DNA of 64,000 nt from Blasia pusilla (taxonomy: Eukaryota): positions 43,214,001 to 43,278,000 of the forward strand of contig CM114271.1 of the NCBI GenBank assembly GCA_050084515.1. Direction: 5' to 3'. Positions 4,101 through 46,759 of the stretch are shown here, in pieces. Numbering within the stretch: position 1 is the stretch's first letter; each line of letters begins with the position of its first letter. The notes below the pieces were generated by a model. It was given only the letters and a program-made list of their open reading frames with translations, made no database searches and was not told the origin of the DNA. A program made the translations under genes and the position numbers.

Positions 4101-4574
4101 GATTACACAATATGGCTACAAATGTGACAACATGTCCCTCAATGTCATGGTGCGGCTCCGAGATCAAGATGAGACAGTGTGGCCATGAAAGGCATGGCAT
4201 GAAAATTGGTGGTTTGTTGCAACTAACAACATCATGAAATAATAATTGATCACCATAGAACAACTACATCATGAATAGCTAATTCTATAGTGCTCACAAT
4301 AGCAAGGACTTGAGAAGCAAGTCTTGATCACAAGTCCATGGAGGAAAAATCTTGGTGTGATCCACCAAAGTTGGAACTTAAACTAGCTAGTTGTGAGACT
4401 AGAAATGGTGGTAGAATCGACGACGGGAGTAATGATAGGCGAGATGTGTACCTACCTTGAGACTAGCCTTAGGCAAGAAACAAGCATATCTACACACAAG
4501 GATAAGTGAAAGGAAATCAAGGTGTGAGATCTTTGAGCCAAGCTTCAATTCAAGGGCGAGGAGCGAGGAACACA

Positions 4575-5255
4575 TGAGAAGTCAAGACGAGTGAGACACC
4601 ATGAGACTATTCATGAAATGTTTGCAATGAGATGCCAAAGGACAAGAGGTAAGACTGACACTAGCCATGAGACAAAAAAAATTAATCCAAGCTCCAAGAC
4701 AAGTATAGGAAGTTGAGAGTTGTAGAATATGTAGGAATCCTTCACCAAGTTGTCTTGAGGGATACCTAGTCAAATGTCGTTTCACGGGTCGAGAACCACC
4801 TTCGAGCTGAGGGCCAAAATCAAGGGACCTAGGGGGACAATGGAGATGATGGGGTTCCCAAGGACAACCCTGGAAGTACCTATAAAGGAGTATACCCTCC
4901 CTCTCTAACTATTCAAGGCCTTGAACAAGGAACTAACCATGATGCGTGTTTGGCCCTGCTTCGAGTTTGAGTAAATACACTATTTGGGATGTACCTTGAG
5001 GGATTAATCAAGGCGCTATGATAAATGCTAGTGACTTCGAGAGATTGATTGAGCCTTGCGGAAGAGGATTTTTAGACAAACTATCTACACTTGGCATGGG
5101 GAGACTCAATGTGATTAGCGGTTCTTGACTACCTAGCTTTGGAAGGCGCAACCAGTCGAGTCGTTGACACTCAATCCATGAGTTTCAATAGTACTTGCAA
5201 AGCTCAAGGTCAAGAGATTGAAGCGCTTTGGGGTGAATCTAGGAAGAGTAGAGGT
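4575..5255. repeat. Inverted copy of the 1435-2110 repeat
   Basis: Multiple collinear blocks match 1435-2110 in reverse orientation. Confidence 0.6.
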
Positions 5256-5799
5256 TGATATTTATAACGGACCACCAATTACCATCATCAATTACTCTAT
5301 GCTTCTCAAAATCGATGCGGCTCTACGATCGAGATCGTGGGTACGACGATTACGTATGATATAGGTAACCCTTATGGGGGGTGCTATGGGATGAAAATCC
5401 TAGGGGATGATTTTTTAGGAGGCGCATAGTGGGGGTGATTAGTGCGCCGACGGCAATCTTGCCAAACCCCCTCAACATTTTCAAATTTAAATTAAAAAAC
5501 TTAAGCAACCTTATTTTTTGGCAATTTCAATCAAATATCCCCTAAAATGGGGGGATTAACTTCCACAAAAAAAATTCACACCAACATCTCTCAAAAAATA
5601 AATTCAAAATTTTTTTCATTCAACTTCTCTCCAAAGAGGGAAGTTTTTACCAAACACTTCAAATAACTATTTACCACAAGGAAAGCCTTCTTCTCTAAAA
5701 TACGAAATGGCCATTGCTATATACTCACAAGTTGAAAAATATATCGTCTAAAAATTGGCAACACTACGGCATTGGGAACTTAGTATTAAGAACTCAAAT

Positions 5800-6730
5800 C
5801 TGCTATTATATAGTAGCGGTGCTTGTGGAGCTTTGACGGAGTGACGATCAATGAGCATGTGGAGACAACTTGGAGTGAGATTTTTGCACAAGGTCAAGAT
5901 TTCTCAAAGGATCTTGAGGTATCAAGGAGTGCTAAATTTTAACCCTAGGAAACTACACCCATTGTATGCAAATTTTTGAAGGAGAGCGTGAGGATGTTGG
6001 ATCCCTTTGGAGGGACCAACAAAGGTTTGGTTGTCTTCTTAAAGGTAGGCCTTTTCCTCTAGAAGTTTGAGTATGTGTAGCATGATGAGATTGCAAAATA
6101 GATCTTACTTTGACATATGTTCAAATTGAGGCAAAAGTTCCATGATCTCTTGCTTTAGTAATGTAGGGTTGGTAGAGTTCCTTATTGAAGGAGATCTTCC
6201 TATTGAGGGCAAAGAATCTAGAATAGATGGGCACCATTAATTTGTTGACTACAAGTTGGCCTTGTTAGGGTCAATCAAGTGGTAGTCAAGGGGGTGGCTT
6301 GGGAGACCCTAGGTCTAGATTATTTTGGCCAATAGTGCAAATCTTGCAACATCTGCAAGAGCACCACACCCACTTTGTTCCCTAACTTACATTAAGGAGA
6401 ATGTGTCGTTGTTGGATGACTCTTAGTCGCGAGTAGTGACTAGTGTGCATTAGGATTATGCATAGATTGGATAGACTCTAGTTTTGGACATGGCGAGCAT
6501 GGGGACCACGTACGCATATCCCGCGTCTTTGGTGGACAGATCGAATGTTGCATGAGGTTTTGAGAAGGTTAGGCAAGAGTGGAATGACCCTCCTAATTGT
6601 TGGTGGATTTCATATTGGATCTAGGGCATCAATCACAAGGAATGAGGCACAATGATTGACTCCCATTGAGTGTGGTGAATAGAGTTGGCATGTCAAGAGC
6701 ATCCCTCCTTAAATCCTCCTCACGCCTTGG
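5800..6730 (+). pseudogene. Degenerate C5-cytosine methyltransferase domain of an older copy of the retroelement family
   Basis: Manual translation gives RMLDPFGGT (about 5991, motif I), SWPC*GQSSGSQGGGLGDPRSRLFW (about 6254-6328, motif IV), YIKENV (about 6388-6405, motif VI) and HIPRLWWT (about 6515-6538, motif VIII). Each aligns to 40700-41280. Confidence 0.8.
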
Positions 6731-6929
6731 GGGTTTGAAGGAGGGATAAGTTTGAAACTTTTTTTATTTGTGATTTTCTTGCCATTGATATGCAATTTTT
6801 TTGCTGCTATGCTACGAGTGTTGTCTCCATTTTAATTTTAATTTGCATGCAACTATCATATGAATATCAAGAGTTATAAGACTCAAAGTTTATGAGTCAA
6901 TAAAATTGCACTTTGCAACTATATTGTGG

Positions 6930-7880
6930 TTGATACTTGCAAGAGGAGTGAAGGAGTAGCATATACATTCCTTGATTGAGTGCTGAGTCAAAATGATGCA
7001 CTAGCAATAGTGTTGACAGACCAAGGCATCGAGTTTTGTGAGAAGTTTTAGGCTTGTGTGATCAAATATTGATTGACCACTACACAACATTACAAGATCA
7101 TTCTAAGGTGAATGGTCTAGCCGAGCATGTTGTCCACAAGATGAAGAGGGGTTTGGGCAAGTATGGCTTATAGAGAGTTCGCCTAGCAGGTTGGGACCTA
7201 CAATTCTTATGGTATCTTCCTTCTACATGAATAGAAGGCAGATATCCTTGACATCTTATTCACATTTACTTTTTGCTCTATGGATGAGAGTCGGATGTAC
7301 CTACGACCAATTTTCATGATGCTATCGAGATACAAAACCTTGATGACCTTCATGTGTGGGTATGAGCATGTTCCAAAAGAGTAGAGACATTTTCAAGAGT
7401 CATGCCCATAGCATTTCAAAACTTGGAGATTATACGACATTATGACACCTTGAGGTATGCGATTATTTGGGAAGGAGGATATTGATCGACGATCCCGAGG
7501 TTCTATCAAAGGGACTATATTTACTTGCAGCAGACAATGCCAACAACTTTAGATGTGAAAATCAGGCACACCATTTTGAGGGTGTGCCTTAATTTCTATC
7601 ATTCTCTGGTTAGATGGGCAAGCATATGTTGATATGGTTTGTAATTGGAAGGACCATGAGTAGAATTGCAAATCATGTCACCTTTCTAGTATTTATGGTA
7701 TAATTGATTTGAGCTTGGAATTGGCACCTACAAGCTTATGGTGTATGTTATGTGGATCTGCTAGCCATGCAACCACAATGCTAGTTTGTGATGGATGTTT
7801 GATAGGGTGGCACATGACATGTTTGATTCCACCTCTCACTAGAGTTCCTGAAGGATGATGGATGTGCCCTAGCTAGATGT
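6930..7880 (+). pseudogene. Degenerate integrase + PHD finger of the same older copy
   Basis: Reads VLTDQGIEFCE.., DYIYLQQTMPTTLDV.. and CMLCGSASHATTMLVCDGC..GWHMTCLIPPLTRVPEG*WMCP, matching 36774-37700. Many stops. Confidence 0.85.
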
Positions 7881-7899
7881 ATATGGGATAGATAGTCAT

Positions 7900-9350
7900 A
7901 AACTTAAAGATTCCTTTTTGAATGAAGCTAGACAAGTTCTCTTAACTTTCTCCTCTTTAATTATGTTTGGTTAGGCTTGATTCCAATCGTCTTTGATGGA
8001 AGCCCACTTAAAGGTATTTTTTAGAGGCACTATGTTCAATGGGGGTATTCTTGTGAAGGTTTGGGCCCGTATTTGCTCTTGATGCAGTAAAGGGATTGGC
8101 TCAAGGATGCTTGCCCCTTCATTTTGCCTTTCTATATTGCACCATTTACTTTTACTACAACAATGCAGTTCTATTTGGGCCTCTGCTCACTACATGCATG
8201 TGGTTGGTTTGACATATTGTGAGTGGCATCAAAGCCTGAATTTTTTGGTGTGTATTTGCCATGTGTCCCAAGGTTGCACACGTGTCCACAGACCTATCCA
8301 TGTCGGAAAACTTAAGTCCATTCTATGGACAGACATGTCCGTGCAGGCTCCAGTATGCGGGGCCCGCACCCAAGCTGGCCCGCACCCGTTACATGATCCG
8401 TAGCCCGACCTCGGGTGGGCTTAGTGCAAGCCTCAAGCCTGCCTTGCGGGCCCTGGGTGCGGGCTCAAGGCCCGCAAAAATTGGTCTGCTGGACCAAGAT
8501 TTGGTCTAGCAGACCAATTTTAGGCTCAAGACCCTAAAGCGAGCCTTGAGCCCGCATGTAGGCCCTCAAGCCCATGCCTGCCCGTGCCATGTCTCCCTCA
8601 AGCCCGCGTCTGCATGTTTGGAGCCCACACCTGCCTGTCTAGAGCCTGCGCCCAATTAGCCTTGAGCCCGCACCTGCCCGCCCGGAGCCCACACGTGCCC
8701 GCCCAGAGCCCGCGGCCAATTAGCCTTGAGCCCGCACCTGCCTTCCTGGAGCCCACACGTGCCTTGAGTCTGTGCGTGTTTGCCTCGAGCCCGCACCTGC
8801 CCGCCTAGAGCCCTTGCCTGCCTTGAGCCTGCGCGTGTTCGCCTCGAGCCCGCACATGCCCGCCCAGAGCCCCCGCCTACCTGCCCTACCCCGCGCCTAA
8901 CGAGCCTTGAGCCCGCGCCTGCCGACCCTAGCCCTAGCATGCCGACCCTGAGTTCGCCCTATGGGCCATGCAACAGGTGCGAGCTCGGTCAACCCGAGTC
9001 TATGTGGCGGGCTCTAAGGCGGGCTCGGGTGCGGGCCGGGCATGTTTGAGAATATGTTTCGACATGTCCGTCCCATGGACAGACTTGTTCGTTTCCGTGC
9101 AATCTTGATGATTCTATCCACTTGGGGATGAGCCGATAAGAGGATTACCACTTACAACATTTTGTGGTTTTGTATTGCTTACAAGAGTGGATTCTATGTG
9201 AAGAAAGAGCAAGTGCGAGCATTGGAATTGTGTTTGCCAACACTATTCCATATGCGATACCCTCATTTGTGCTGATCTTTATATGAAGTGGGAGGTTGAG
9301 GTGGTGATGATTATATTATTATTATAGTCATGGCTATTGAGGGTGTTTCT
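7900..9350 (+). mobile_element. Highly degenerate CRE-like non-LTR retrotransposon remnant, interrupted by a MITE
   Basis: YCEWHQSLNF.. (about 8215) and CIAYKSGFYVKKE (about 9170) resemble YECCQSLDPLGVH and FNIARKSSFHMQER of the element at 57900-58900. Confidence 0.4.
8269..9107. mobile_element. hAT-type non-autonomous element (MITE) with an internal GC-rich GAGCCC(G/A)C repeat array
   Basis: TIRs are CAAGGTTGCAC (8269) and GTGCAATCTTG (ends 9107). Subterminal ATGGACAGAC/GACATGTCCG motifs are shared with 59113-59421. Flanks ATGTGTCC/ATGATTCT match at 5 of 8 positions. Confidence 0.7.
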
Positions 9351-23300: not shown

Positions 23301-26300
23301 GAGAGAAACTTGCGAACACAAGACCTCTACCTAACTGTTGGTCAGTTTAAAGCTAAGAACAGGACTCAGAGATAATTGTGAAGAGTATATGTCTCTAACT
23401 CTACACATGTGACAACAAGCACGACTCTTAATCCGAGCTGATACAAACGATTGCATTTGAGAAGACCTCCTACACTACTGTGTTGAAATGTGTTAATATC
23501 TAGTTTAATCATGCCCTTGAAGTAGTCAGTTAAATACTAACTTAACTGGATACTAACTTAGTTAGTTGGAGACAACTTAGAGCTCTTGTATCTTCTTGAG
23601 TAACCTCGAATTAGGGCTGAACTCGAATTAGGGTTAATCTCGAGTTAGAGCTAGCCACCATCAGATATTTAGGGTATGGATCTGTTCAAGAAGATCTAAG
23701 GGCCAGAGATGCTCACCCTCATGTATATAATGTCTCTGTTTAGAGAGCAGAAGCTAATTCTACAGTATGCACAATTTTGGTGAAGACTCCTGAGGCTTTT
23801 GGTGTGTAGTGCAGCACTGGCCCTGCTGCAGAGTGATCTGAGAGTAGGAAGAGGAGATTGAGACCAACTGCTGTGCTTGCTAGAGCCTCGCTGGAAGGCA
23901 GGTTGTTTTATCGAGTATGCTGATGGAGATTGTTTGTGCTCAATGAGGTGAGCCATGTCTGATCTCTGAGCTGGTGACATGTGAGGATCTGTAGTGTGAG
24001 TGCAAGGTGTGACTCTGTAGAATCCTTCCTAGTATCTGTTAGATAATAAGAAGAGTCACATCATGGTAGGGCTCTGATTTGGCAATAGAGATAGAAACTG
24101 ATTTGCTGATTGTGTACAAGCTGAAATCATGGATGGTCTAGCTGATGCTAGTTCTGACTTTGTACAAGGAGATACTTCTGCTGGTCAATCATTTTCACAT
24201 ACTGCAGATTCACTGCAGTATGCACATTTTCACATACTGAATCAAGGACCAAGACATCAGTTATTCACGTTGTGTGCAAGGTAGGGAATTCTTGACCATA
24301 TCGGAGAGAAAATTCTCTGTGGTTCTTACCCAAAGAGCGCTCTCGCCCTCCTGGTTCTGTTGATTGAGTATCACAAAGAGCCCGCCGGAAACGATCAAAT
24401 AACTCCAGCACTCGACCCCTGATCAGAAACGATACCTGTTTTGACTCTTCAAACTCCTTCATCAAAGATGGTGGTAAACCCTCTCCAAAATATTCGTTAA
24501 CATGCTGTGGACTGCACAAACCGCAAATTGAAAATGCGTCTCAGTTTACCATCAGTCAAAATGCGCTGTAGTATACCCCACTCTTCAGATTCCTGTCATC
24601 GTGCTTTTTCTTTAGCTGTATAATTTCAAGGTGAGTGAGTTTCAGAGTAATATCGATTTAACGATAAAACAAACCCACGCTGTAGTATACCCCACTCTTC
24701 GGATTCCTGTCATCGTGCTTTTTCTTTAGCTGTATAATTTCAAAGATGAGTGAGTTTCAGAGTAATATCCATTTGACAATAAAACAAACCCACGCTGTAG
24801 TATACCCCACTCTTCAGATTCCTGTCATCGTGCTTTTTCTTTAGCTGTATAATTTCAAGTTGAGTGAGTTTCAGAGTAATACCCATTTAGCAATAAAACA
24901 AACCCACACTTCCCATCACTCGAGGATTTGATCTATGGGTTAGATGCTTGTTGAATAAGTCCTCGACTTTCAAGAGTGTGTTTGTCTGGTTTTGGTCTGT
25001 CTTCAATTCGCATGTTTACACAATTTTCCTTCTTACAGCCTTCTGGTTTCCAGTGACTAGATATACATTTCCTTCACTTCATGGAATGTGCTTCTTTTTA
25101 AATTGCCTGCTTGGAGACACATGAAGGTTTGCATTTTAGAACCACTGCCAAGTTCAACGTCCAGTGGCGGTCGGTTGCATCACAAGAGGCAGGACAGATA
25201 ACGACCAGTTGTGAGTGGCAAGAGGATCTTCTCGCTAGCTAGAGTTTGGAGCTAAAAGAGTTGAGAACTCCACGTTATCCTCTGATTCTTCTAAGTTCCC
25301 CAGGCAGTAAGATCCTTATTAGAATCATAGCACTCCTGGTTCTTCGCAGCAAATTGTGGGGACTAGAAAGAACATGCACCCAATTCCAGGTCTCGAACAT
25401 AAGCAGGTAAGGTTGGGATAGCTTCTCAGCAAATGAGATCTGCTTAATCAACTGCATTTTCGATTAGTCGTCACGCAGCGAAGAGAAATTAAAAACCCCA
25501 TCCCATACCGGTGAAAAGTTTGCAAGAGTCAGGATACATCAGTAAGTCGATAGACTGACCTAACGGTGAGGTACTTGTTCACGTCGGCAAGAGTGAGGTG
25601 TGCTGGACCTTCAGCAGCCGTATATACAGGATCCACTTCCAACTCCACTTCCGATTCCCGCTCATCGCCAACGGTATTTCCATTTTTAGAGTCGTTCTCT
25701 TCTACGTTGGCCTGCATATCCAGCTCCTCGTGAACATGTTTATCATCCGCAGAAACAACTGCCGACATTAACCTGACGCTTTCCCTTGACAAGTAAGAGT
25801 CAGACGGAGTGATGAAAGAGTTGCATCTTCTCGAGAACGTCTGTCGTGAACTGAAAATTCCGTCTTTAATCAAACCTGCGACATTGGAAGTACATGACTG
25901 TGACAGCTAAGTGTCGATCGAATTCCAGAACCGATCTCATGTGAATGATCTACCGAAAACTAAGATATGAATTTCTGAGCTTCTCTGTCAACCCCATAAA
26001 TTCTACTTCAAAATTTGATATACCTTGAATCCCTTTCGATTTCTGAGCTTCTCTGTCAATTCCATTAAATTCTACTTCAAAATTTGATATACCTTGAATC
26101 CCTTTCGGAGCGTCTTTCACACATTTCCCAGTTGCTAACGCACGCGAGATAACCCGGGAAGCTGTTGGTTCCTGAGAGTCCAGCTGCGATCGGGAAACCT
26201 TAAGATCACGTGCTTGCTTCTCGACAATGTTCGTTCTTCCACGGATAACTCCCACTGCCGTTTCCACCACATCTTGGCACGACCGCAGACGGGCAGATAC

Positions 26301-33156: not shown

Positions 33157-33266
33157 TGTCGTGCGCATACACTTCACTACACAACCACACAGATGTGGTG
33201 TGGTTGTATGTGTCTTGGATTGGTGACATCAATGTATATTGTGTAGCGATGTATATGCACACGACA
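33157..33266. repeat. 110-bp unit bounded by inverted copies of the retroelement A-repeat terminus
   Basis: Starts TGTCGTGCGCATACACTTCACTACACAA and ends TTGTGTAGCGATGTATATGCACACGACA (24/28 inverted match). Both ends match the element end at 35822. Confidence 0.8.
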
Positions 33267-33539
33267 ACTTGCTCTACTAGATCATCTACCTCAAGATGAT
33301 CTTGTAAAGTCATGCGTGTTTAATTAGTGATTGATCTCACAAGACCCAAAAGTTTTTCATCTTATGGATTTCAAAACCAAGATCTCATGCAAAACCTGAT
33401 GCCTTAGTATGTCTACACCTCCACTAGTGTTTCATGTGCATGTCAAGTAATTCATGCTAGCCTAATCCATAACATGGCATAGAGATGCCTCAAAAAATGA
33501 CGATTGTGCTTAATTAGATGTCTTGCCAAAGATCTAGAA

Positions 33540-35091
33540 GATTGTAGAGGAACATTTTGCGGGTATGGGGAGATAATAGGATACAAGTGGTACCTCATCC
33601 TTCCCACCGAGCATGTGTAGTGCAACATGCCCATGAGTAGTTGGGGCATTTTGGAGTAAAGCGTACTTACAGCTTATTCCAGGTTCAATATTGATGGCGC
33701 GGTATGCATATTGGAGTACAGCACTTTGTGGCCAGATGTATGGTATGTGACCAAGTGTGAGCATCCTTCAATGCTCCCACTCCGTAGTTACATCCTTTGC
33801 CGATTATGGGTTTAGGTTATCGGTGGACTTTAGACTTTGCGGGACCTTTGCCATTGACGGGGCGTCACCACAGGTATGTTTTGGTCATGGTGGAGCATTT
33901 CTCCAAGTGGATAGAGTTGGTGGCACTATTAGACAAGGCAAGCGAGGAAACAACATATGCGTTTCTAGATCGTGTGCTTAGTCATTTTGGTGCAGTGGCG
34001 GAGGTGTTGACTAACTAGGGTACCGAGTTTAGGGGAGAGTTTGAGGCCTTGTGTGATTAGGCGCTAGTAGATCACCGCACCACATCTAGAGATCATCTTG
34101 AGGCAGATGGTTGGCGGGGAGAGTTGTCCATACAGTGAAGAGAGGATTGCGCAAGTAGCAAGTATGGCTTGCAGCGGGGACAGTTGAGGGAGTGGGACCT
34201 ATAGTTGCCATGGTTGGCTATGGGTTATCGCTTCAGCTGGCAGGCATCCTTGGCGTCATTTTCACCGTACTTTTTGCTCTTTGGGAGAGAGCCAAATTTA
34301 TCTCCATCTATTTGAGGTGACATGGCGGAGATGTTAGATCTTGATGATCCAAATATGTGGGTATAAGCATGTTCTCACAGGGCAGAGATTTTTCATAGAG
34401 TCATGCCCATGGCCTCTGAGAACTTAGCTATTGCTCAGCATAGGGATACATTAAGGTACGCGACCATTCGTGGAGGAGGTTATCTTCCAGGGATTAGGAG
34501 GTTTCATCTTGGAGATTACGTGTATTTATTGCAGGCCGTACCCGCGACGCTAGATGTCACTGCAGGGCGCATAATCCTACATGTGCGCGAGGTGTTACCG
34601 ACCGGAGTGCTCATGTTGGAGGGACGGGATGGTATGGTTTGGAAGGATCATGTGCGCAACAGTGCACCATGTCACCTTTCAAACGTGGACGGGAGAGTGG
34701 ATCCGAGCTTAGCAATGGTATCTACACGCTGGAGGTGTATGTTGTGTGGATCTACGAGGGATGCAGCCACCATGTTGGTATGTGATGGTTGTTCTCGAGG
34801 GTGGCATATGTCATGTCTGATCCCCCCTCTTGATGTAGTTCCCACGGGACGATGGATATGTCCAAGATGTATATAGGGTAGTAGATCATGTTAGAGAGAT
34901 GTGATATCTGCTATCTGGAGTTGGGGGGATCCAACTACTAGTTTAGGGGGCGGTTGTGTATCTCGATGTATATGTGTGAGTTGATTTTTTGTACTTGTGT
35001 GGATCTACCCGTATGTTGGGGAAAATTAGTATTGTGTGGTGTGGATGTGACCAACGATATATATTGTGTAGCGATATGTATGCGCATGACA
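33540..35091 (+). mobile_element. Truncated older copy of the retroelement: integrase + intact PHD finger + A-type terminus
   Basis: PIMGLGYRWTLDFAGPLP..VEHFSKWIELVAL (33797-34018) and ORF 34403-34876 ending CMLCGS..MLVCDGCSRGWHMSCLIPPLDVVPTGRWICPRC. Then TAGGGGGCG (about 34944) and a terminus ...GTGTAGCGATATGTATGCGCATGACA at 35091. Confidence 0.88.
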
Positions 35092-35821
35092 TTTAAGAGA
35101 GGAATTTTTTTAAATTTTACTCTTAAATTAAAAAAAAATTGAAGCAAGCACAAAATCACAAGATGATAAGAAAAATAAAGTAATTTGCTCTTGCCACAAT
35201 ACAAAGAGACCGAATAAGAGAGATTTTTGTCTTAGATGCACCTTAGTTACATAATGGTTATTGAGATAACCTACATTTCTACAAGCTCCCTAAAACTTAC
35301 TTTTTAAAGGGAGTTGGATTGGGCCCTTGGAGAACTTATTCTAATTTTTCCTCTAGATTGTTTGCTAAAAGTAGAACCCTTCTACCATATTGTGTATCTA
35401 AGGTAGAGAAGATCTCCTTTTCCTAAAATATTCTATTATTCTCTTAGGGTATGAGAATCCTCTTCTAGTTGAGACTACAACTATCCTTCTAATTAAATTT
35501 TCTTTCCTTTGTAGCATAAATCAATTGAGGCTCCAATATTCTATGATGGACATTCATTTTCAAGTCTCTTAGAGACGCTTTTGTCATGGTAGATGCGACG
35601 TAGGGCAAGATAGTATTTAGGCCTTAGAGGGTTCTTGTAATTCCCTATTTTGAGAGGTAATATGTGACTTGCTCGTAGGAGATAGTGTACGAGTGTAGGT
35701 CACCCTTCCTTTATGAGGAGTGGCAACCTTGGATTAGTTGACCTTCCCATCTTTTGTGTGGAGCTACTTGAGCCTATATGGTCAAGGGTTAGTTGGTAGT
35801 TCACAGGTAGTCGGTCTTATG

Positions 35822-35949
35822 TGTCGTGCGCATACACATCGCTACACAACATACATCGCTGTCACCGAACACACACACAAACACGCATGATCCCATGCTA
35901 ACTCATGGCATCCAAACAACGAGACAAGAAGAACCAAAATATCTCCAAT
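35822..35949. repeat. Split direct repeat A, terminal copy (128 bp)
   Basis: Matches 36466-36593 with 1 mismatch seen (GAACC/GAACA). Confidence 0.95.
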
Positions 35950-36463
35950 TAAAGTAAGATCCAATCTCTCTCTCCACCATCTCACACCATAGCTCTCAAA
36001 GGTGTGCACTCTCTCTCATGTCAAACCAAACCCACTCTCCTAATGAGAGGCTTGGGTTACACTCACAAGGCAAGGTACCATAGCTCCGCCGCCTCATGCC
36101 AAGAGGTTCAACAAAGAGAGAATGAGCTCTCAAGCTCTCTCTCCTTGAGGTATACCCCTCTCCTCTCCCAAGCTCTCTCCATGGTAACCTATTCTCCCAA
36201 GTCATCTCCTTGGCTCTTGACCTGATGTCGGAGGTCAAGGGCCACTTACCAAAAATAGTAAGTCGATCATATACTCAAAATGGTACTTACCTAAAATAGC
36301 AAGTTCCTCAATATGGCTCCAAATGAGCCGAAACGAAGGGGAAACCTGCTATCTCAGGTTTCCAAGGGCCTCAACAGGTCATCCTCGACCTATTGGGCGT
36401 GTCCTCCACTACTCATGAAGGCGCTCTATTAGATCCCACCGATCTATCCTAAAAGACGTGACA
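35950..36463. repeat. Split direct repeat B, internal copy (514 bp)
   Basis: Matches 45773-46286 with about 5 transition mismatches by eye. Confidence 0.95.
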
Positions 36464-36465
36464 GT

Positions 36466-36593
36466 TGTCGTGCGCATACACATCGCTACACAACATACAT
36501 CGCTGTCACCGAACACACACACAAACACGCATGATCCCATGCTAACTCATGGCATCCAAACAACGAGACAAGAAGAACAAAAATATCTCCAAT
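36466..36593. repeat. Split direct repeat A, internal copy (128 bp)
   Basis: Separated from the end of B (..GTGACA, 36463) by GT. On the element strand it is preceded by PPT-like AGGGGGGCG (36594-36602). Confidence 0.95.
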
Positions 36594-36773
36594 CGCCCCC
36601 CTAGCTGGTGGTTAGGTCCCTCTAACTCCAGATAGCCATCTATCCCTACCTACCATGACATACATCTCTCGGACGCTAAGAGCAAGAAGGCCGGGTGCTC
36701 ATGTGGCCCCGTCATTAGTCGCCTCCTTGTCATCCATGTCATAGACACAAGTCGGAATGTAGAACTACCTTCT

Positions 36774-38040
36774 CTATGTACATCTGGGACACATCCATCG
36801 TCCCTGAGGAACCCTAGTGAGAGGTGGCGTCAAACATGCCTTATGCCATCCTCTCGAACACCCATCATAGACTAGCATCGTGGCCGCACCACGGGCAGAA
36901 CCACACAACATATAACGCAAGCCTGCAGGAACTACTACTAAGCTCGGATCTACTGTACCATCAATGTTAGGAAAGTGACATGGCGCACAATTACGCACAT
37001 GGTCCTTCCATACCATACCATCGCGTCCCTCCAGCAAGAGAACACCCGATGGCAAAATGTCACGCATTCTCAAGATAGTGCGCCCTGCAGTCACATCCAA
37101 CGTCGTTGGTGCCGTCTGCTGCAAATAGACATAATCTCCCTGATGAAACCTCCGGATAGTTGGTCGATAACCACCACCTCGAATAGTCGCATACCACACG
37201 TATCTCGATGTTGTGCAATCGCCAAGTTCTCGAACGCCATGGGCATCACTTTCCGAAATAACTCAGCCCTCTGAGAACATGCTCGCACCCATACATTTGG
37301 GTCATCAAGGTTCAGCACCTCACCAGCATCTCGACGAATGGCCGCAGGTAAATATGGCTCTCGGCCATAAAGTAGCAAGTACAGTGAAAAAGACGCTAAG
37401 GATGCCTGCCTGCTGAATCTGTATCCCATCGCCAACCATGGCAATTGGAGGTCCCAATCTCCTAGGTGACCTCTCTGCAAGCCATACTTGCGTAAACCCC
37501 TCTTCACCGTCTGCACAACTCTCTCCGCTAATCCATCCGCCTCACGATGATCTCGCAAAGTCGTGCGGTGGTCGATCAGCGCCTGATCACACAAGGCCTG
37601 GAACTCACAGCGAAACTCGGTACCGTGGTCTGTCAACACCTCAGCTGGTGCGCCATAATGACTCAGCACTCTGTCAAGGAAGGCATAAGCTACTCCCTCA
37701 CTTGCTTTGTCAGGCAAAGCAACCAACTTGATCCACTTCGAGAAGTGCTCGACCATCACCAACACATAACGACTGTGACGCTCCGTCAAGGGCAAAGGTC
37801 TTGCAAAATCCAAACTCCATCTATACCCTAAGCCCATGATCGGTAATGGATGCAACTGTGGAGTCGGAGCATTGAACGATGCTCGGACCCGATCACACAC
37901 CATGCACTGGCAACAAATTCTTCGAACGTCGGTCTGCATGCCTCGCCACCAATATCTGAATCTGGAGCAAGCTATCGTCCGCTTCACCCCAAAGTGACCC
38001 AACTCCTCGTGGGCATCTTTGCACTAGTCGTGCTCTGCAA
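36774..38040 (-). pseudogene. Integrase (HHCC + DDE core) with C-terminal PHD finger, frameshifted
   Basis: AHEELGHFGVKRT..CMVC, RWSLDF..VEHFSKW, VLTDHGTEF, GLAERVVQTVK. PHD at about 36777-36914 reads YMLCGS..MLVYDGCSRGWHKACLTPPLTRVPQGRWMCPRC. Confidence 0.93.
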
Positions 38041-38359
38041 AGGATGCGGCACTCACGCGTACTCTGCCATCCTCCCAAACCCTCAAAACATGTGTCCCCT
38101 CCCAACGGAACGTCGGCCCCCATTTGTAGGATCCGATCCGCTCTCTAGCATCCATGGTGCTCGCAAGGCTACCAGTACGAAGGTACTCTAAGACTACTCC
38201 ATCATCATGAATATCTCGGCCACTTGTCGTGTCCTCACTGGCCTCGGGATCCAAAGACTCTCCACTAGACCTCGCCATCGAAGTCTCCACACTCTGGCTC
38301 TCCATAGCCAACATGCCTAAATAGGCTGACGCGTGCCATCCAAGCACCCCAAGCACCAA

Positions 38360-39750
38360 CTCCTCATCACTCTCTCCATGCCATCGAGCTCCAATCGCAT
38401 CTCGCTGACTCGGGCATGGGTTACGACTCAACCCATCGCATCCTGGTTGAGCGTTCAGTCTATGTACCACCTGAAAATCATACTCTGCAACAACAGAGCC
38501 CATCTCTTAAGCTTCCTGTAAGCTTGTCGGACTCCATCAACCGCCGGTGGTTGATGATCGATGATGATGGTAAAGGGGTTGCCGAATAAGTAACACCTGA
38601 AATGCGCGGCGGCCCACACCACGACCAAGCACTCACCCTCATACGAGCTGTATCGCCTCTCTGGCGTTGTTCGAGCGGCTAGCGTAAGCCACCACAAACT
38701 CTCTACCCTCATCATCATGCTGGGTGAGCACCGCTCCAAGCCCCAACATGCTCCAATCTGTGTGCAACTGGAAAGGACGCCCCCTGATCGGTCTCCTCAA
38801 GATGGGTGCGGACGTCAACCTTTCCTTGAGCAACTGAAATGCTCGCTCCTGCTCATCCCCCCAGTGCCACTCGTGATCCACCTTGGTGAGCAAGGTCAGC
38901 GGCTTCGCAATCGAACTGAATCCCTTGATGTATCGCCGATAGAAGTTCGCCAATCCCATGAATGCGCGAACACGGCTCACATCTGTAGGGCGTGGAATGC
39001 GTGAGATAGCCTCTACCTTTGTCTGTTGAACACCAAGGCCCCCTGGGTATATCGTATGATCCAAGTACTCAATCTGGTCGTAGAAGAACTTGCACTTGCC
39101 TGGATGTAGCTTCAGCCCATGTAATTGCAATCGTCGAAACACCTCCCCTAGATGTTGCTCATGCTCCTCAACCGTGGCGCTAAAGACTACGATGTCATCA
39201 ATATAACACCTAGCAAAATCCAGACCAGCCAAGATCCTATCCATGATCTCTGAAACTCATCCGAGCGTTCTTTAACCCAAATGGTATAAGAACCGCCATT
39301 GGTACAAACAATCCTTCCGTGAGGATCGATGCCCCAAAATGCCGTCTTCGCTGTCCTCCAATCGATAGGCGGTGATGGTATCTAGCTCATAAATCAATGA
39401 ATCAAGACCTTTGCGTGACCAATCACATCAAAGATCTCCTCGAGGGTGGGCATGGCATACCTATCGGACTTCATCTGCGCGATTGATAGGTCGGTAATCC
39501 CCACACATCCGCCTATCCGTCCAGTTGCCATGCACATCCTTCTTGGCGGGCATGACAGTGGCACATCCATACTCCCCATGCGACATCTCCACTAGTCCTA
39601 CTTTGACCAAGTCTTGGCTCCTACTCTGAATCAGAGCCCTCTCCATATCATCTTTGTACTGCCGCCGGAAGATCGGCATATCACTCGACAACTCAATGCG
39701 GATCCCGGTCCCTTCACCGTACCCAAATCCTCCATGCTAAACGCAGCGGC
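38360..39750 (-). pseudogene. Reverse transcriptase + RNase H (Ty3/Gypsy-like), frameshifted
   Basis: RRMCGDYRPIN, DRYAMPTLEEIFD, CYIDDIVVFS, LKLHPGKCKF. RNase H motifs LHTDWSMLGLGAVLTQ, YSSYEGECL, DHQP, DGLSR. Confidence 0.95.
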
Positions 39751-40122
39751 TCCTATAACTCTTGAGGAACGATGTATCGGCGCCGCTCTCCTCTGTCAAC
39801 TTAGGGCCCATATCGGCTCCCAAGTCTCCATCGTGACTACGGTAGGACTCTCGCGCGGGTATCGGTGGTTGCTATGGTGCAACCCGTCTCGAACAACAAC
39901 ACTCAACCGCTCTCCAGAGCCAGCGCAAACTCGATCTCATCCACGTGCAGTGCCCGAAACCACGCTCGATGCTGTGGCTATCATCTCCTTGCGTACCTTC
40001 AAAACATCCCAAGAAGTCCAAGGGTGTCTCTCCCGATCTCCCCTGGTGCGTAGATCTCCTCGGGTCTCACCCCCAGCCATTGCCTCCACCGTCTCGGCAG
40101 GCATGGGGCTCACCAACGCAAC

Positions 40123-40157
<35 letters not shown>

Positions 40158-40329
40158 TCTGGGCACGGGGATTGGTCGGGACGCCATGCTTCCATACCAA
40201 GGTTAGCACGGTTGATAATATCAGCCCAAGTGTTAATTACACGACCTGCCGCAAAATCTGGAGTTCTTAGACATTTGGGACAGAGGAAACGCGCTGTGAT
40301 CTGTCGCGATCTCATACGACGCTGCTCAG

Positions 40330-41300
40330 CCACTCCCAAGCTGAGGATCCATGTCAAGCAGTTCAGGTCCATCGCCTGACCCAAGACATGGCGTCGTGAT
40401 GCCTCGACATCGATGGTACCGCTGCCGTCACTCTGTGGGAAATCCCATCGCCGCTCTCTCTCGTCGGCGTTGGGCTCCACCAACCGCTGAACCTGGTCAT
40501 CCCAAACCAAGCCAAGACCGGCCTCCTTGTATGCATAGGAAGCGGAAAACTCACAACGTGGGCAAGGTGCCCGCGCGCCTGCCTACCCTGTTGACGATCG
40601 GCGGTGGTCGATCATCGTGCCTCATCGCCTTTGTGATCGGCGACTGGATCGAGAATGGAATCCACTAACAAAGGGAGGGGCGCTCCACTCTGCGGAGATA
40701 CGCCCTCCATAACACCGCATGGGGCACCAAGTTGGTTCACCATAGACGCGGGCGATGGGCTCTAGAACCTACACTCGCCGCATCCAAGAACACTGCTGGG
40801 CCGATCCAGGCACGCACCTGATGAGCACTCGTCACGACCCGTGACCTGGAGTCTCCTAAGATCGGCACATTCTCTAGAATGTAGGCTGGAGAATGAGATG
40901 GTGCTCTGCAAGAATCGCCGTAAGACCCTCAACATCTCCCAAAACAACCTGGACCGAGTGTCAGCCAACCCGCTGCCTTGTCCAGCACTCGATTGGCCTT
41001 GACATGGCCAACCGGCAATGACCAAATCAATGGTCCCTACCCGCTCTAAGTCTTGCGCCCCCAACAACAAAATATCCCTCGGTAGGGAACTCACGGTACC
41101 CTCAGATCGCGGAGGCCTTGCACAATAAGTCGGGAAAACGTAGGCGTAATTGCGCCACATGTCGTAGTGAGAGCGCCTCGCAACATCATCACTCTCCACA
41201 TACAATCTTCTTTGTACTCGCACTCCTTCTGCAAAATAAACAACTAACCCGGTGCTAATCCCTCCAAAGAGATCTAACACTCAAATACCCTCCTCCGGGT
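40330..41300 (-). pseudogene. DNMT3-like C5 DNA cytosine methyltransferase domain within pol
   Basis: Motif I VLDLFGGISTG; motif IV IDLVIAGWPCQ (PCQ at 40999-41007); motif VI AYILENV (ENV at 40866-40874, shifted frame); motif VIII GSRAHRPRLW*TN; motifs IX/X EPNADERER..FP..SRRHVLGQAMD. Confidence 0.92.
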
Positions 41301-41714
41301 ACACCACACAATGGGTGTAGTATCCAAGGGTGTCATCGTAGCACTCCCGCTACCTCGGGCTCCTCAGACCGTCACGCTCTGGGTGCAACGCCTCGCTCCA
41401 CGCGGATGCACGTCGTGCGATCGCCAATCGTTGAAGCTCCTCGGCCGAGCCCCACGGCACCTCTCCTCCACGGAATGATGCAGCTACCATAAAACTCCTC
41501 TCCATAGAAATGTCAGGAACGGGAGTATCCTCTGCATGGACATGTCCCTCAATCAAATCACTAGGCCAAGTGATGGCACTACTAAATGCTGCTAAGGTCG
41601 CCATCTCTCCTGGCCGTTGCTCGATCACTGCACATGTGAATCGAACGGGTAATGAGCTAAGGCGCCCATCACCTGACTGCCATCCTGGTCTTTAGGATCG
41701 ACTCCTCCCGATAA

Positions 41715-42100
41715 TCAGGAAAACCCCATCGGGTATAACATTGCTCCACCAACCAAGACGTCGTAGGACTCAGCATCAGTCACTATCGCCTTAGCGCGCA
41801 CCACGGACTCATCTCTAGGATGTCCCGGGCGAATCCTCACCACGACCTCCTGTCGGATGATATACTGTGTGGTACTCGCTCCACCCAAGGATGTCTGTAT
41901 CCGAAATGGACAACACTCCACATCGGCTCTCGTCAAGCCCAATCCTCTGAATGACGCTTTCCCCAACATCAAGGGTTGCGCTCCTGAATCCAACAAGACG
42001 CGCTGCGGACTAAAAGCTCTACCTCCAGGACTCACCAACTGGAAGACCTCTCCTCGGTTATCCAGCAACACAACACCAGGAGAAGCCATGGCACGCTCTA
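41715..42100 (-). pseudogene. Retropepsin-like aspartic protease domain
   Basis: RVLLDSGAQPLMLG (DSG catalytic motif) ... YDVLVGGAML. Confidence 0.85.
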
Positions 42101-42899
42101 TCGCGGGTCTAGCGGGCATCTCCGCCATCCTAGCGCCGCGAACTGCCATGAATCTGGCGTGGGCGGCCCGAGCATCCGCTCCAGGGCAGTCCATCACCTC
42201 CTCTGCAATCACCTCTGAACGTGATGCAGGAACTCCAACTCCGCGCTCACATAGTGAAGCGGCCAGCCGAAAAGCCTCGGCGGGCGTACCTCCCAACGTC
42301 ACAACATCGAAAGCAGAGAATAAAGGAGTGCGGTACACAACGGTGGCCGCCCCCAACAACGTGCTCGACACATGCCCCTCCCGAGCATCAACAATAGGAG
42401 TCGCCTTTTCGCTTCTCCCATCGCCCTCCATGCTTGCACACCAACAACATTACCAACTCTCCAGGAACTTTGATGAGGACCCATCGATGGGGTCCTCATC
42501 GCTTCGGACAACGTGAAAGATTGAGGAAGCCTAGTCTCTCTACTGGCTTCCCCTCGCTGTGGATCCAACTCTACGGCTGCTCCACGCGTCACAACTGCGG
42601 CGGCCTCCATCTGGGCAACCCCGCACATCCATCCAGGATCCTCGGATCTCTGGCTGCTCCATATGATGTCGATGCCACGGATCCGGCATCGGGTAACCTC
42701 AATGCCATAGCAAACAATCTGCTCTTGTAGTCATTTGTCGATCGGCGACCATCCCAGCCTCACGTCCGGCATCTCCCTCGGCGCGTCTAGGTGGTGGTAC
42801 TCTACCTCCTCCACGGGCAGCTCCACCACCCTATCGGGCAACTCCAGCTCCTCGTCCCCCAACGGGACCACCGAGCACGATCTCTAGGCCCACCGGACC

Positions 42900-44250
42900 G
42901 GCTACTCGCTCGAGTGCCCTCTCGGCCCTCGGTCCAGGCGTAACTCAGGATGTAAACTAAAACACTGGCGCGTGTATGACCATACCTCGACAATAGTCAC
43001 ACCGATAATCTCCTGGTGCAAAGACCATCTCCTCCTCCATGCCGAGGCACACGTCCATGACCCCGGCGAGTGCAATCGCGATGATGGGCTCCACCACATG
43101 ACCAACAAGTAATAGTAGGCGGCTGCTGGCGAGCCGCATATGAAGGCGCAGTCTCGGGCACGGCCTCTCGGTATCCTCCCGAGCTCGTGGTGCCCGATCG
43201 ACCTATCTCGAGTCACGTTCTTTGCACAAGTGGTGCAGACAATCGTGACTGCTCTCGCCCAGAACCCATGGTGGCTACGCTCTCCTCCGCCATGTTGCGC
43301 TCAATGTTCTCGGCGGTCCTAAAAACATCTCTCAACGTAGGGGAGGTGTTCATAAGAAGCACCCCCTCCCGCACCCGTGTCCGCAGGGTCCGGTCCAGCA
43401 TCCCATACCATGACTGGATAGCCTGAGCCTCTATCACCCCCTAAGTGACGTTGATCAACCGGCGCAAGCCAGTGTAAGCCTCACGCAAACTCTCACCCGA
43501 GCGCCTCTGGAAGTCGTGGATGCTCCGCAACTTCTCCGTCCGTACCCCCTAGTAGCTCGCCTCAACTCAAAGAAAGAACTCAACCACGAGGGGTTGAACA
43601 CTGGGACGAACCCGACTGGATAGTGCAACTGCTCCCGTGCGAGTGACCCCTCCTAAAACGTCACTAGTGGAAGAGGCAGTAGCCTCTCCTGACTCCTCCT
43701 CCTCATCTGGGAACGGCTCCGTCCATGACACATAGTGTGGGTCATAGTAGAGCCTCCACGCCTCGATCTCACATGCATATCTCTGAGAGAACTCATGGTA
43801 ATCGTCCATGGGCGCCCCCTCTAAATGCTGGAACATACTCTTCCACGCTGTAAACGGGTTGAACTCTCTAGAGTTCCTGGCCTGCTGGGAGTCGCACCAA
43901 CTCCTAAACTCTGCTATAAAATCGTGCCTACTGCACCTGAAAACCTACGCGGTACTCTACCCCGGTCGTCCATCTCGTACGCCCAACTGGTAGGACCACT
44001 CACAATGTGTGGCGATGTGCTCACAAACTCCTCTACACCCTCCCCCTCATCTGACGATGACACAGAAGGAGGTCGAGGTGGTCCCTCACGTGGAGACCCT
44101 CGAAACCTCGCGCCACTCTGCGTAAAACCTCTAGAGCTACTCTCGGGTTCACCACCTCGCCTCTCAAAGTCCCGAACAGACTCCGTGATGACCCTCGTGC
44201 CCCTCTCACCCGATCACTCTGAACCTCATGAGGAATCCCTCAATCACTCA
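42900..44250 (-). pseudogene. Gag-like region with zinc-knuckle remnants
   Basis: Fragments MFQHLEGAPMDDY.. and AIQSWYGMLDRTLRTRVREG; C-terminal CWSCGGAHHRDC and CDYC..YGH knuckle-like motifs. Lies upstream of the protease. Confidence 0.7.
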
Positions 44251-45772
44251 TCCCAAACATGCGGCACTCGATCTACACTCTCTCTCCCCGAGACGTGTAA
44301 CGTGCGGCAACACGCGGCGTGGTGCGGCAAATCGACCAGGCTATCATCTCATCGATAACCTACCCTCAACTCCGGACATCCCACACAGGTCTATGTCCCC
44401 TAAACCACATACATAAATGATGCTCTCAGCATCCACACACCCAATATCCCCAAATAAATCCCCTTAATCCCTCACGTGCGAGGGTAAAGGACCAGAATGG
44501 GTAACTTGAACACATGTCGATGTCGCTCCTCAGCAACTGCAAATCTCGACCCCAACTCGATCGTGGAGATAACTCCTCCAATCAGCAAGTCATACTCCTC
44601 CCGTACTGATGGTGCTCAAAACTCCTCGATAGACAGTGCGGTCCCAGCGGAACGGTGCGGCGTTGCGCGCATTTTAAGGCGATTCTGAACGGCACGGCCC
44701 TCGATGGTGGGATGCGGCACTCGGCGGCACACCCTCCTCAATCAATAATAATCCCACACTCTGCTCCACAATGACGGTGCGGCTCCGCAATTGAGATGGT
44801 GCGGTGCGGCCACGAGCGGCACGGCGCGGCAATCGGCGGCGCGTTGCGGCTACGGGCGTCACGGCACGATACTCGATCGTCGTCGAGCGGCTACCAATCA
44901 CAACATAGCAGCATGAAATCAAAACTCAAACACCATAACCGGAGGTCATCTGCCTTCACTGGTTGATGAAGAAACTGCGATGACGGTGGCGGCCAAAACA
45001 AAGTACGTGGTGGCGACGCAAGTCAAGGAATCCACAAACGTCATGGAAGACCCTCCACTCCGTAATGGCGGCAATGGCACCCAAAGGGTGGACAATGGAC
45101 GGTGGACCCTTGACAGTGACGGTTGACCGCTGATGGTGACGGCCGACCGATGACGGTGACGGTTGACCGTTGACGGTGACTATGATGGCGACGGCCGCCG
45201 CCGGTGTGGCGGCTGATTTAGGGTTTGCACGATTTAACCCTAAAAATCGCCTAGCAATGGCAGCTTTACAAGATTGCCCATAACTTTTTGCTCGCAACTC
45301 CAAATTGTGCACTGTTTGTTGCACACCGTGCACAGCTTCACAATCTACGCTACCATCAAAAAATATTTAGAATCAAACATTTCAGTAAAAACTGACGGGG
45401 ACTGTCGTAAAGCCCAATGTCTCTTTCTCCTACACAAAATTCGGCAGCGCTCCCGCGCTGATTTCTCCCAACGAAAATGTAACATCTGTAAAAATACAAA
45501 TCAGCAAGCTACATGGTGCTCCCGAGAGCACCAGCATGGGGCAACCCGCCCCCATACTCAATCCCTATCAGAAATTGGGCAGCGCTTCCGCACGTCACTC
45601 TTCCACACGAAAAATCGGCAAATGCAAAGAGTAATGAAAGCAGCCCTTGCTCCGGTGAGCACTCCCATGAGCCGCTGAACGGGGAACACGGTCCCCAACC
45701 TGCAAAAACAGCGAGTGACCAGCGAGCTCCCCCATGAAGCTCTCTCACTCTCTCATTCTCTCACTCTCTTTG

Positions 45773-46286
45773 TAAAGTAAGATCCAATCTCTCTCTCCAC
45801 CATCTCACACCATAGCTCTCAAAGGTGTGCACTCTCTCTCATGTCAAACCAAACCCACTCTCCTAATGAGAGGCTTGGGTTACACTCACAAGGCAAGGTA
45901 CCATAGCTCCGCCGCCTCATACCAAGAGGTTCAACAAAGAGAGAATGAGCTCTCAAGCTCTCTCTCCTTGAGGTATACCCCTCTCCTCTCCCAAGCTCTC
46001 TCCATGGTAACCTATTCTCCCAAGTCATCTCCTTGGCTCTTGACCTGATGTCGGAGGTCAAGGGCCACTTACCAAAAATAGTAAGTCGATCATATACTCA
46101 AAATGGTACTTACCTAAAATAGTAAGTTCCTCAATATGGCTCCAAATGAGCCGAAACGAAGGGGAAACCTGCTATCTCAGGTTTCCAAGGGCCTCAACAG
46201 GTCACCCTCGACCTACTGGGCGTGTCCTCCACTACTCATGAAGACGCTCTATTAGATCCCACCGATCTATCCTAAAAGACGTGACA
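45773..46286. repeat. Split direct repeat B, terminal copy (514 bp; element 5' end)
   Basis: Matches 35950-36463, ends ..AAGACGTGACA and is followed by the TSD TATG. Confidence 0.95.
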
Positions 46287-46759
46287 TATGAGAGGACCAC
46301 ATATATAATGGTTATGGAGTTAGTATCTTGTGTACTCTATGTCATTGATGACCTACTAGGAGGAAGTCCATGGAGGTGCCCAAGGGGGTATACCTTATGA
46401 AGCTCATTCAGAGCTCATCTTCCTTCGATCAGACCCATATTGGGATCTGTGATACAGTGCAGAGTGCATGTATTGAGTTTGGATTTTCTCTTGAAGAATG
46501 GGCTAGGATTGATCAGAGATCACAGACATTGACAATATATTGCAAAATTTCTCCTACTATTATCATAGTGTGTATTATTGAGTGGATGTTTGGAAGAAGC
46601 ATAGCTACTTGCACATTTCACATTCCATATCAACTTTATATTGGGGTTGTCGAGTCATTCATGTGTAGATGTGTTAGGATTCATAGTTAGATGGATCTTA
46701 CACAAGTGTGTATGATAGTCAATATATATTGGCAACGATGTCTTTTTTTACGACTCTTT

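Follow-up and report, generated by a model that had tools for sequence, protein, structure and literature searches.

Canonical Ty3/Gypsy retrotransposons encode protease (PR), reverse transcriptase (RT), RNase H (RH) and integrase in that order, possess a polypurine tract, and are inserted by the edges of their long terminal repeats (LTRs), with TG...CA ends and a short target-site duplication (TSD). In retroviruses, a palindrome with 4 nucleotides (nt) between CA and TG is formed when the ends of the cDNA are ligated at the junction of a circle. Insertion from this palindrome is a side route, and its use by retroviral-type integrases in living cells has long been debated as a side issue in retrovirology. 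The integrases of prototype foamy virus (PFV) and of HIV-1 are reported to cleave palindromic 2-LTR junctions (PMC1180852, PMC1905944). Elements of the DIRS order are described as carrying split direct repeats in the arrangement A1-internal-B1-A2-B2, encoding a tyrosine recombinase and lacking TSDs (PMC8969392). Finally, KnitGypsy-Dnmt3 of Klebsormidium nitens is presented as having a DIRS repeat structure with Gypsy domains (de Mendoza et al. 2018, PMC5890265, legend to Fig. 4c). Here we analyze a stretch of 64,000 nt from Blasia pusilla (assembly GCA_050084515.1, contig CM114271.1, positions 43,214,001 to 43,278,000 of the forward strand), referred to below as the window. At 35822-46286 it contains a single Ty3/Gypsy-type retrotransposon, coding on the minus strand, with split direct repeats that meet at a GT dinucleotide. 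We propose that the integrase of this element probably cuts an internal palindrome after each CA and that the ends of the cDNA become joined.

Split repeats and the GT junction

A repeat search and direct comparison of the pieces resolved the element, on the plus strand, into A1 (128 nt), B1 (514 nt), the dinucleotide GT, A2 (128 nt), an internal region (9179 nt) and B2 (514 nt), and bore out the split-repeat layout that a first-pass annotation of the sequence had put forward. In the coding orientation, on the minus strand, the order becomes b-internal-a-AC-b-a, where a and b denote the two kinds of repeat. All of the parts described next are given on the minus strand. A1 (35822-35949, 128 nt) is the terminal, extra copy of a and corresponds to the first 128 nt of U3; its plus strand starts with TGTCGTGCG, and its outer end, on the 35822 side, is the CA end of the integrated element in the coding orientation. 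It is followed by B1 (35950-36463, 514 nt), the 3' copy of b, which would comprise the rest of U3 and then R-U5, and whose TG start abuts the spacer. The boundary of A1 and B1, at 35949/35950, joins the end of b bluntly to the start of a and is read here as the end of U5 fused to the start of U3. The 2-nt spacer (36464-36465; GT on the plus strand, AC in the coding orientation) stands at the centre of what we will call the CA-NN-TG site. A2 (36466-36593, 128 nt) is the internal a, interpreted as the U3 start of the 3' replicative LTR, and directly before it, in the coding orientation, is the polypurine tract AGCTAGGGGGGCG (36594-36606). The internal region extends over 9179 nt (36594-45772) to a candidate self-priming primer binding site (45752-45772) that lies directly after the 5' b and is complementary to part of b. 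B2 (45773-46286, 514 nt) is this 5' copy of b, and its outer TG forms the other integrated end.

The junction itself, at 36455-36474, reads GACGTGACA-GT-TGTCGTGCG. On the plus strand B1 and B2 both terminate in GACGTGACA, and A2 and A1 both begin with TGTCGTGCG. The two copies of a share 127 of 128 bases (99.2%) and the two copies of b are 99.0% identical over their 514 bases. GT is missing from both outer ends, and the outer termini are TG...CA within a 4-bp direct duplication, TATG, which occurs at 35818-35821 (left flank ...CTTATG, followed by TGTCG) and again at 46287-46290 (right flank GACA, followed by TATGAG). These positions, together with both flanks, confirm that GT links the right terminus of the element to its left terminus and is absent outside, as had been noticed from the sequence. 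When the 20-nt junction was used as a pattern with up to 3 mismatches, it occurred once in the window, compared with 0.02 occurrences expected from 100 shuffles. The layout is a departure from the canonical one, in which two identical direct LTRs are the outermost ends; the ends here are b on the left and a on the right.

Spacers, ends and duplications in related copies

Eighty metagenome loci (numbered with the prefix L) were obtained with a profile of the integrase, and their integrase identities are 42-79%. The 68 loci of at least 3 kb were compared with themselves, and 12 reference pieces of a and b were compared with all 80 loci, 40 of which gave matches. The split layout b-internal-a-NN-b-a, or its 3' part, was present in 16 of these 40 loci, representing 11 distinct insertion sites, and the relatives that possess it span several subfamilies (L005-type, L038-type, L059/L070-type and L039b-type) with integrase identities of 45-79%. 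A one-off rearrangement in the window, or an error in its assembly, is for this reason scarcely credible: the same layout recurs at these 11 other sites, 8 sites are each covered by 2-3 independent contigs with the same form, the depth of the terminal repeats is very high in two DNA runs of the host, and the layout is in print for Klebsormidium, in the portion of the account already cited (PMC5890265).

No gap was needed at the junction to align its 12 distinct instances, those of the window and of the 11 other sites. In all 12 the spacer measures 2 nt, and it is always a purine followed by a pyrimidine: AC in 3, AT in 4, GC in 4 and GT in 1. The ACA that precedes it is invariant, and it is followed by T, then by G (9 junctions) or A (3 junctions), and then by T. 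When the spacer is GC or AT the CA-NN-TG site is perfectly palindromic, and in L005 the palindrome extends to 16 nt. Five duplicate loci were omitted from these counts, and their spacers are identical to those of their twins. The first-pass annotation had suggested that conservation of the spacer be checked across copies. Its length is indeed conserved; its sequence is not fixed. A search with the junction pattern gave no match in the collections of viral contigs and metagenome contigs, which therefore do not include copies near enough to be matched exactly.

Perfect 4-bp TSDs flank the start of b and the end of a in all 9 copies for which both ends are present. In the coding orientation the duplication of the window copy is CATA, and those of the relatives are AAGG (L005), CATA (L035), AATC (L069), TGTT (L011), TACA (L012), ATTA (L024), ATGC (L049) and ACGT (L056). 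The outer end of a adjoins unrelated flanking DNA in the relatives. TG...CA ends with 4-bp duplications are read here as the signature of a DDE integrase, and they would result if staggered cuts were made after each CA and DDE strand transfer followed. The encoded protein agrees with the earlier prediction of such an enzyme: an open reading frame (ORF) piece at 37091-38023, minus strand, contains an H2C2 zinc-binding domain (PF17921, E 1.1e-12) and the DDE core, rve (PF00665, E 2.7e-12). The nearest solved structure to this integrase is that of Ty3 Gag-Pol (7q5b, E 1.4e-16), and the next is PFV integrase. The tyrosine recombinase domain PF00589 was found in none of the 10 ORFs of the element that were scanned with Pfam, in none of the best 120 of 162 related proteins, and in none of 4 long polyproteins scanned.

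These results bear on the possibility of a circle being recombined at the junction by a tyrosine recombinase, either the element's own or one acting in trans, a mechanism proposed for Ngaro and PAT. The topology A1-internal-B1-A2-B2 is certainly that of the split direct repeats of the DIRS type (PMC8969392, in the sections cited above), and in Ngaro and PAT-like elements, as here, the internal joint consists of the two outer ends placed end to end. However, the DIRS order has a tyrosine recombinase and no TSD, whereas the lineage of the window element has a DDE integrase, TG...CA ends that fit such an enzyme, and perfect duplications in 9 of 9 copies. We regard recombination of this kind as very improbable.

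The b/a joint, corresponding to A1/B1 in the window, contains no extra bases in 10 of the 11 distinct related split insertions, or in 11 of 12 when the window is included. The exception is L002, in which the joint (L002:2669-2690) contains 19 extra nt that partly resemble a nearby stretch of b, and a starts 2 nt closer to the G-run. This looks like filler-type, imprecise joining of a cDNA end. At the other side of the element, a precedes the 5' b in 0 of 11 distinct 5' ends, and no copy begins with a full a-NN-b.

In addition to the split copies, 12 distinct insertions, as many as there are of the split form, consist of plain b-internal-a and do not have the NN-b-a extension. In these the polypurine tract precedes a, the flanking DNA begins right after a, and 4-bp TSDs are present in 5 of 5. 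Since the 8 sites covered by 2-3 independent contigs always have an identical form, the plain copies are probably not collapses of the assembly. They could have arisen by a-a recombination, from a 1-LTR circle cut at the site, or by cuts at both sites, and they should be incapable of replication. The equal frequency of the two forms (12 versus 12 distinct sites), and the intact duplications of the plain copies, would be expected if plain b-internal-a were the form that inserts and if NN-b-a were added to it later by unequal recombination or tandem insertion, in which case GT would have no role. Several facts stand against such a secondary origin. Plain b-internal-a has no terminal redundancy and would give no replicable RNA by any known LTR-type scheme. 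In the split copies a single TSD surrounds the whole span from b to a (4 of 4) and not each part of it. A spacer of 2 nt in 12 of 12 junctions is unexpected from independent tandem insertions or from recombination. Finally, the a pair and the b pair of the window are equally young, at 99.2% and 99.0% identity. A secondary split seems to us improbable.

Two further groups of loci are mentioned for completeness. L062-L079, with integrase identities of about 47-50%, showed no direct repeats of at least 24 nt within their contigs near the integrase; L063, for instance, showed none in a contig that reaches 9 kb upstream of the integrase and 4 kb beyond it downstream. These elements may be without terminal repeats, or their repeats may have decayed. 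L080, the integrase of which is 47% identical to that of the window, has identical ends of 123 nt (1-123 and 9049-9171) with a period of 9048 nt, and may represent a circle, a tandem array or a loop made by the assembly through repeats.

The replicative LTR and a proposed route of insertion

Which unit is copied to the two ends of the cDNA may be judged from the positions of the polypurine tract, the primer site and the probable start of transcription. A G-rich polypurine tract or G-run ends 2-3 nt before a in all six of the subfamilies seen. The primer site of the window contains an 11-nt exact complement to nt 338-348 of b, a length reached by 1 of 500 shuffles, together with an overlapping 9-nt complement to nt 344-352. 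The exact complement is 17 nt long in L004 and L005, 12 nt in L011 and L049, and 10 nt in L024 and L069, and the complementarity is significant in 7 of 12 5' ends, the observed length being reached by no more than 6 of 500 shuffles. The pairing covaries, since the window family and the L005-type family do not share their paired sequences. In both families a TATA-like box of the GGGGTATA type lies 26-28 nt upstream of the paired segment of b. In the window this segment is at 45935-45949, with GGGGTATA 28 nt upstream, and its position fits the 5' end of the transcript, which would make R-U5 177 nt long in the window and about 176 nt in the L005-type family. Self-priming in which the transcript's own 5' end acts as primer has been described for Tf1/Sushi and for the plant element Tcn1 (PMC6317226), and the priming of the present element is likely to be of this Tf1 type rather than of the tRNA type.

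The polypurine tract before A2, the primer site after B2 and the spacing of the TATA-like box together imply that the unit copied to both cDNA ends would be a-NN-b, and we define the replicative LTR in this way, as extending from the polypurine tract to the primer site. We considered and rejected the alternative that b+a, which begins with TG and ends with CA, is the canonical LTR: on that reading the 2-nt spacer would need to act at once as primer site and as polypurine tract, and those actually present flank the internal region instead. Because the CA-GT-TG site lies between the polypurine tract and the probable start of transcription it would be part of U3, and as such would be transcribed and inherited in every cycle. 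This changes one element of the earlier interpretation, according to which reverse transcription might yield a circle or concatemer with the GT junction: the junction does not arise by reverse transcription or circularisation, being encoded in U3. The related idea that the internal junction mirrors a circle junction is right to the extent that the junction consists of the two integrated ends with 2 nt in addition. The newly made joint is, on this anatomy, A1/B1 (35949/35950). At A2 this start of a comes after the polypurine tract, and at B2 this end of b comes before the primer site, so that A1/B1 can be read as a blunt fusion of the end of U5 to the start of U3.

Two constraints follow for any model of insertion. 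First, the integrated copy contains the U5/U3 joint and the ends of the cDNA must therefore have been ligated. Second, the absence of a before the 5' b indicates that the ends inserted are other than the termini of the cDNA itself. Compared with a canonical Ty3/Gypsy element, the inserted ends lie inside the replicative LTR, by 128 nt in the window and by 95-156 nt in the relatives, and the order LTR-internal-LTR is circularly permuted in the genomic copy, inside which the ends of the cDNA are fused.

The following scheme would account for this arrangement. Reverse transcription would place a-NN-b at both ends of the cDNA. The near-palindromic ...GACA-NN-TGTC... within a-NN-b would be used by the DDE integrase instead of the cDNA termini, with a nick after CA on each strand made by the same chemistry as in 3' processing. 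The 2-nt spacer would be lost, leaving two recessed CA-3'OH ends with 2-nt overhangs, and these would be inserted with a 4-bp stagger. The integrated copy would then run from the start of b to the end of a, with the true cDNA ends fused bluntly inside it at b/a (35949/35950). Ligation of the cDNA ends might precede insertion, in a 2-LTR-type circle opened beside the primer site, or might follow it, when the host joins the free ends; both routes would lead to an identical product. Such a copy would keep the promoter, R-U5 and the primer site at its 5' b, as well as a full a-NN-b at its 3' side, and so could make the next terminally redundant RNA. That integrase opens the junction and drops the spacer was first suggested in the first-pass annotation, and of the readings considered here it appears the best supported. 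The CA-NN-TG site resembles the 2-LTR circle junctions of PFV and HIV-1 in that a palindrome cut internally would give ends that are ready for insertion. It differs from the retroviral palindrome in being encoded in the LTR, in having 2 nt between CA and TG, and in serving, apparently, as the only route.

The two possible orders of cleavage and ligation may be considered separately. If the circle came first, the host would ligate the linear cDNA into a 2-LTR circle, integrase would open the palindrome on the primer side, and plain b-internal-a would come from 1-LTR circles. Circles would be a natural source for both genomic forms, with and without NN-b-a, and the bluntness and precision of the b/a joint in 11 of 12 copies, with the filler-type joint of L002 as the exception, are in keeping with them. 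Palindromic circle junctions are, moreover, the reported substrates of the PFV and HIV-1 integrases, in the parts of the two papers referred to above (PMC1180852, PMC1905944). However, a 2-LTR circle has two identical sites and yet one product only is found, and the circles themselves are inferred from sequence. We consider this order somewhat less likely than not. If cleavage came first, integrase would cut the primer-side (left) LTR of a linear or incomplete cDNA once it had become double-stranded, both CA ends would be held and inserted, and end joining by the host would make b/a. Textbook accounts of reverse transcription have the left LTR finished well ahead of the right one, and a cut on the left would yield only the isomer that is observed, consistent with the 0 of 11 obtained for the other. 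The joint in L002 also resembles chromosomal end joining. On the other side of the ledger, every insertion would leave a chromosome break to be repaired, integrase would have to cleave 113-156 bp from a DNA end, for which we can cite no precedent, and no observation separates this order from the circular one. We consider it slightly less likely still.

A number of points weigh against the proposed use of the internal palindrome. The mechanism is built from sequence anatomy, from which we infer cleavage by integrase, the ligation of the ends and the order of these events. The isomer b/a-NN-b-internal-a, which the two identical sites of a 2-LTR circle predict to be about equally common, is found at none of the 11 distinct 5' ends. 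To explain its absence it has to be assumed either that the primer-side LTR, which becomes double-stranded first, is cut preferentially, or that the isomer is rapidly lost by b-b recombination. The plain b-internal-a copies are as numerous as the split ones, and may have any of the three origins given above. In 5 of the 12 5' ends (L035, L012, L030, L056 and L044) the complementarity of the primer site does not reach significance, and for this reason the argument from pairing applies to two families only. The spacer counts derive from the window and the metagenome copies, and read mapping, which gives the best-supported differences only, does not display variation of GT among the host's own copies. 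Finally, read pile-ups gave no usable start or end of the transcript; the weak peaks at 36384 and 36401 are read as the effect of clipping where the sequence varies and not as RNA ends.

A more general proposal may be considered, although we would put its chances at somewhat less than even. A whole Gypsy lineage of green plants, extending from charophytes to bryophytes, may have abandoned the termini of its cDNA, with a palindrome that has a 2-nt spacer and is encoded in the LTR serving as the normal and only substrate of its integrase. Every insertion would proceed through an intermediate with joined ends, circular or equivalent to a circle, the plain b-internal-a copies would be traces left by single-LTR circles that had been cut at this site, and the whole would be a DDE counterpart of the DIRS/Ngaro strategy that was reached independently. 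If the proposed mechanism is true, a family in which a palindrome built into the LTR is the apparent sole source of the inserted ends would provide a natural system for studying the cleavage of such palindromes by integrase. Split direct repeats would, in addition, be a replication layout that does not depend on tyrosine recombinases, which bears on the relationship between DIRS-type and LTR-type elements. There is also a practical aspect, because programs that search for LTRs on the expectation of two identical terminal repeats will annotate elements of this sort wrongly or overlook them. The kind of element is not new, its layout having been in print since 2018; what is added here is the anatomy of the junction and a testable mechanism. 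The main-text parts of the account of KnitGypsy-Dnmt3, taken apart from its supplements, are silent on the anatomy of the junction, on a spacer, on duplications, on the primer site and on the mechanism (PMC5890265), and in the literature searched, within the portions of the papers that were covered and outside the supplements, we found no analysis of this junction or of such a mechanism.

Coding content, expression and other copies

All of the long ORF pieces of the element are on the minus strand, and their frames are broken, so the copy at 35822-46286 is not intact. In the coding orientation the order is b, the primer site, gag, PR, a DNA methyltransferase (DNMT), RT, RH, integrase, a PHD finger, the polypurine tract and a-AC-b-a. 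A probable aspartic protease (41715-42449) was recognised from an LLDSGA motif in its translation, and this piece gave no Pfam match at E ≤ 0.01. Between it and RT lies a C5 cytosine DNA methyltransferase piece (40762-41280; PF00145, E 3.2e-09) with DLFGG and PCQ motifs in its translation. RT, with a YIDD motif, and RNase H are in pieces with a broken frame within 38455-39736 (PF00078, E 7.3e-12; PF17919, E 4.8e-20; PF17917, E 1.7e-13); on the minus strand RT extends from 39736 to 38639 and RNase H from 38796 to 38455. These are followed by the integrase described above and by a piece with the C-terminal PHD finger (36774-37262; PF00628, E 2.2e-08). The Ty3/Gypsy order of Pol, PR-RT-RNase H-integrase with an rve integrase, is thus present, along with the polypurine tract, the primer site, and TG...CA ends with a TSD in the 4-6 bp range of Ty3/Gypsy elements.

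Among the best 120 of 162 related proteins, the closest named relatives of the integrase are from the liverworts Riccia sorocarpa (82% identity) and Calypogeia fissa (81%). The K. nitens protein KFL_009030040 is 56% identical over 89% of the window integrase in a pairwise comparison, and it shares with the window the order DNMT-RT-RH-integrase. KnitGypsy-Dnmt3, as far as the cited parts of its account go, resembles the window element in its Gypsy domain set, in a methyltransferase inside Pol (of the DNMT3 type in KnitGypsy) and in its DIRS-like repeats (PMC5890265). Both features that define the Gypsy-DNMT3 kind, a C5-DNMT inside Pol and DIRS-like A-coding-B-A-B repeats, were found in the window, the Klebsormidium side of this comparison being taken from the legend. 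The hosts differ, and the nearest named relatives of the window integrase are, as stated, liverwort proteins. By pairwise similarity and layout we place the element, whose host is bryophyte-like, with the DNMT3-carrying Gypsy elements of streptophytes, as a new member of the kind already published, in which the repeats are DIRS-like.

A comparison of domain order took in the polyproteins P0015, P0023, P0049 and P0069. The methyltransferase precedes RT in P0015, as it does in the window and in the K. nitens protein, but in P0049 and P0069 it comes after RNase H and before integrase. Either the domain has moved or it has been captured twice. Another variable part is a stretch of about 170 nt (40123-40292) that is missing from many other copies, with joints from 40122-40124 to 40292-40295 in both DNA and RNA runs. 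Ribosomal RNA (rRNA) reads heap up at 40123-40292 with loose ends of the rRNA type. Rfam gave no match on the element; 42 nt at 40125-40166 presumably resemble organellar 23S rRNA, and the stretch may be a captured rRNA fragment.

The read data comprised two DNA runs and two stranded RNA runs of the host species. In the two DNA runs the summed contig depth was about 100-300 times that of the flanks over the repeats and about 6-120 times over the internal region; the depth of the repeats cannot be converted to a copy number because the reads fit two places. Differences among copies, of which the best supported were listed, are mostly C>T and G>A. In both RNA runs first mates fall mostly on the plus strand over the full length of the element, the bin with the junction included, which indicates minus-strand, or sense, RNA. 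The family is extremely abundant in the host, as judged from depth in the two DNA runs, and it is transcribed. Several runs labelled as air metagenomes contain 16-28% of the sampled words of the element, a signal that would fit airborne spores or fragments of the host.

Two other relatives lie in the window. An older element on the plus strand (33157-35091) is 74% identical to the main copy over its integrase-PHD region (33555-34876). It terminates at 35091 with a polypurine tract and an a-like end, directly after which AT-rich flanking DNA begins. Another a-like end, at 33200-33266, is preceded by an inverted copy, 34 nt long, of the a end (33157-33190) and followed by AC (to 33268). No likeness to b was detectable in the 290 nt after this AC. 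A third, rearranged relative occupies about 2500-7890, with gag-like pieces at 2749-4267 on the minus strand and DNMT (5924-6568) and integrase-PHD (6925-7890) on the plus strand. It stops right after the PHD ORF and has no polypurine tract or repeats. The window also contains tandem arrays that are unrelated to the element, namely GC-rich units of 59-64 nt at 8592-8949 and 3 copies of a unit of about 115 nt at 24564-24910.

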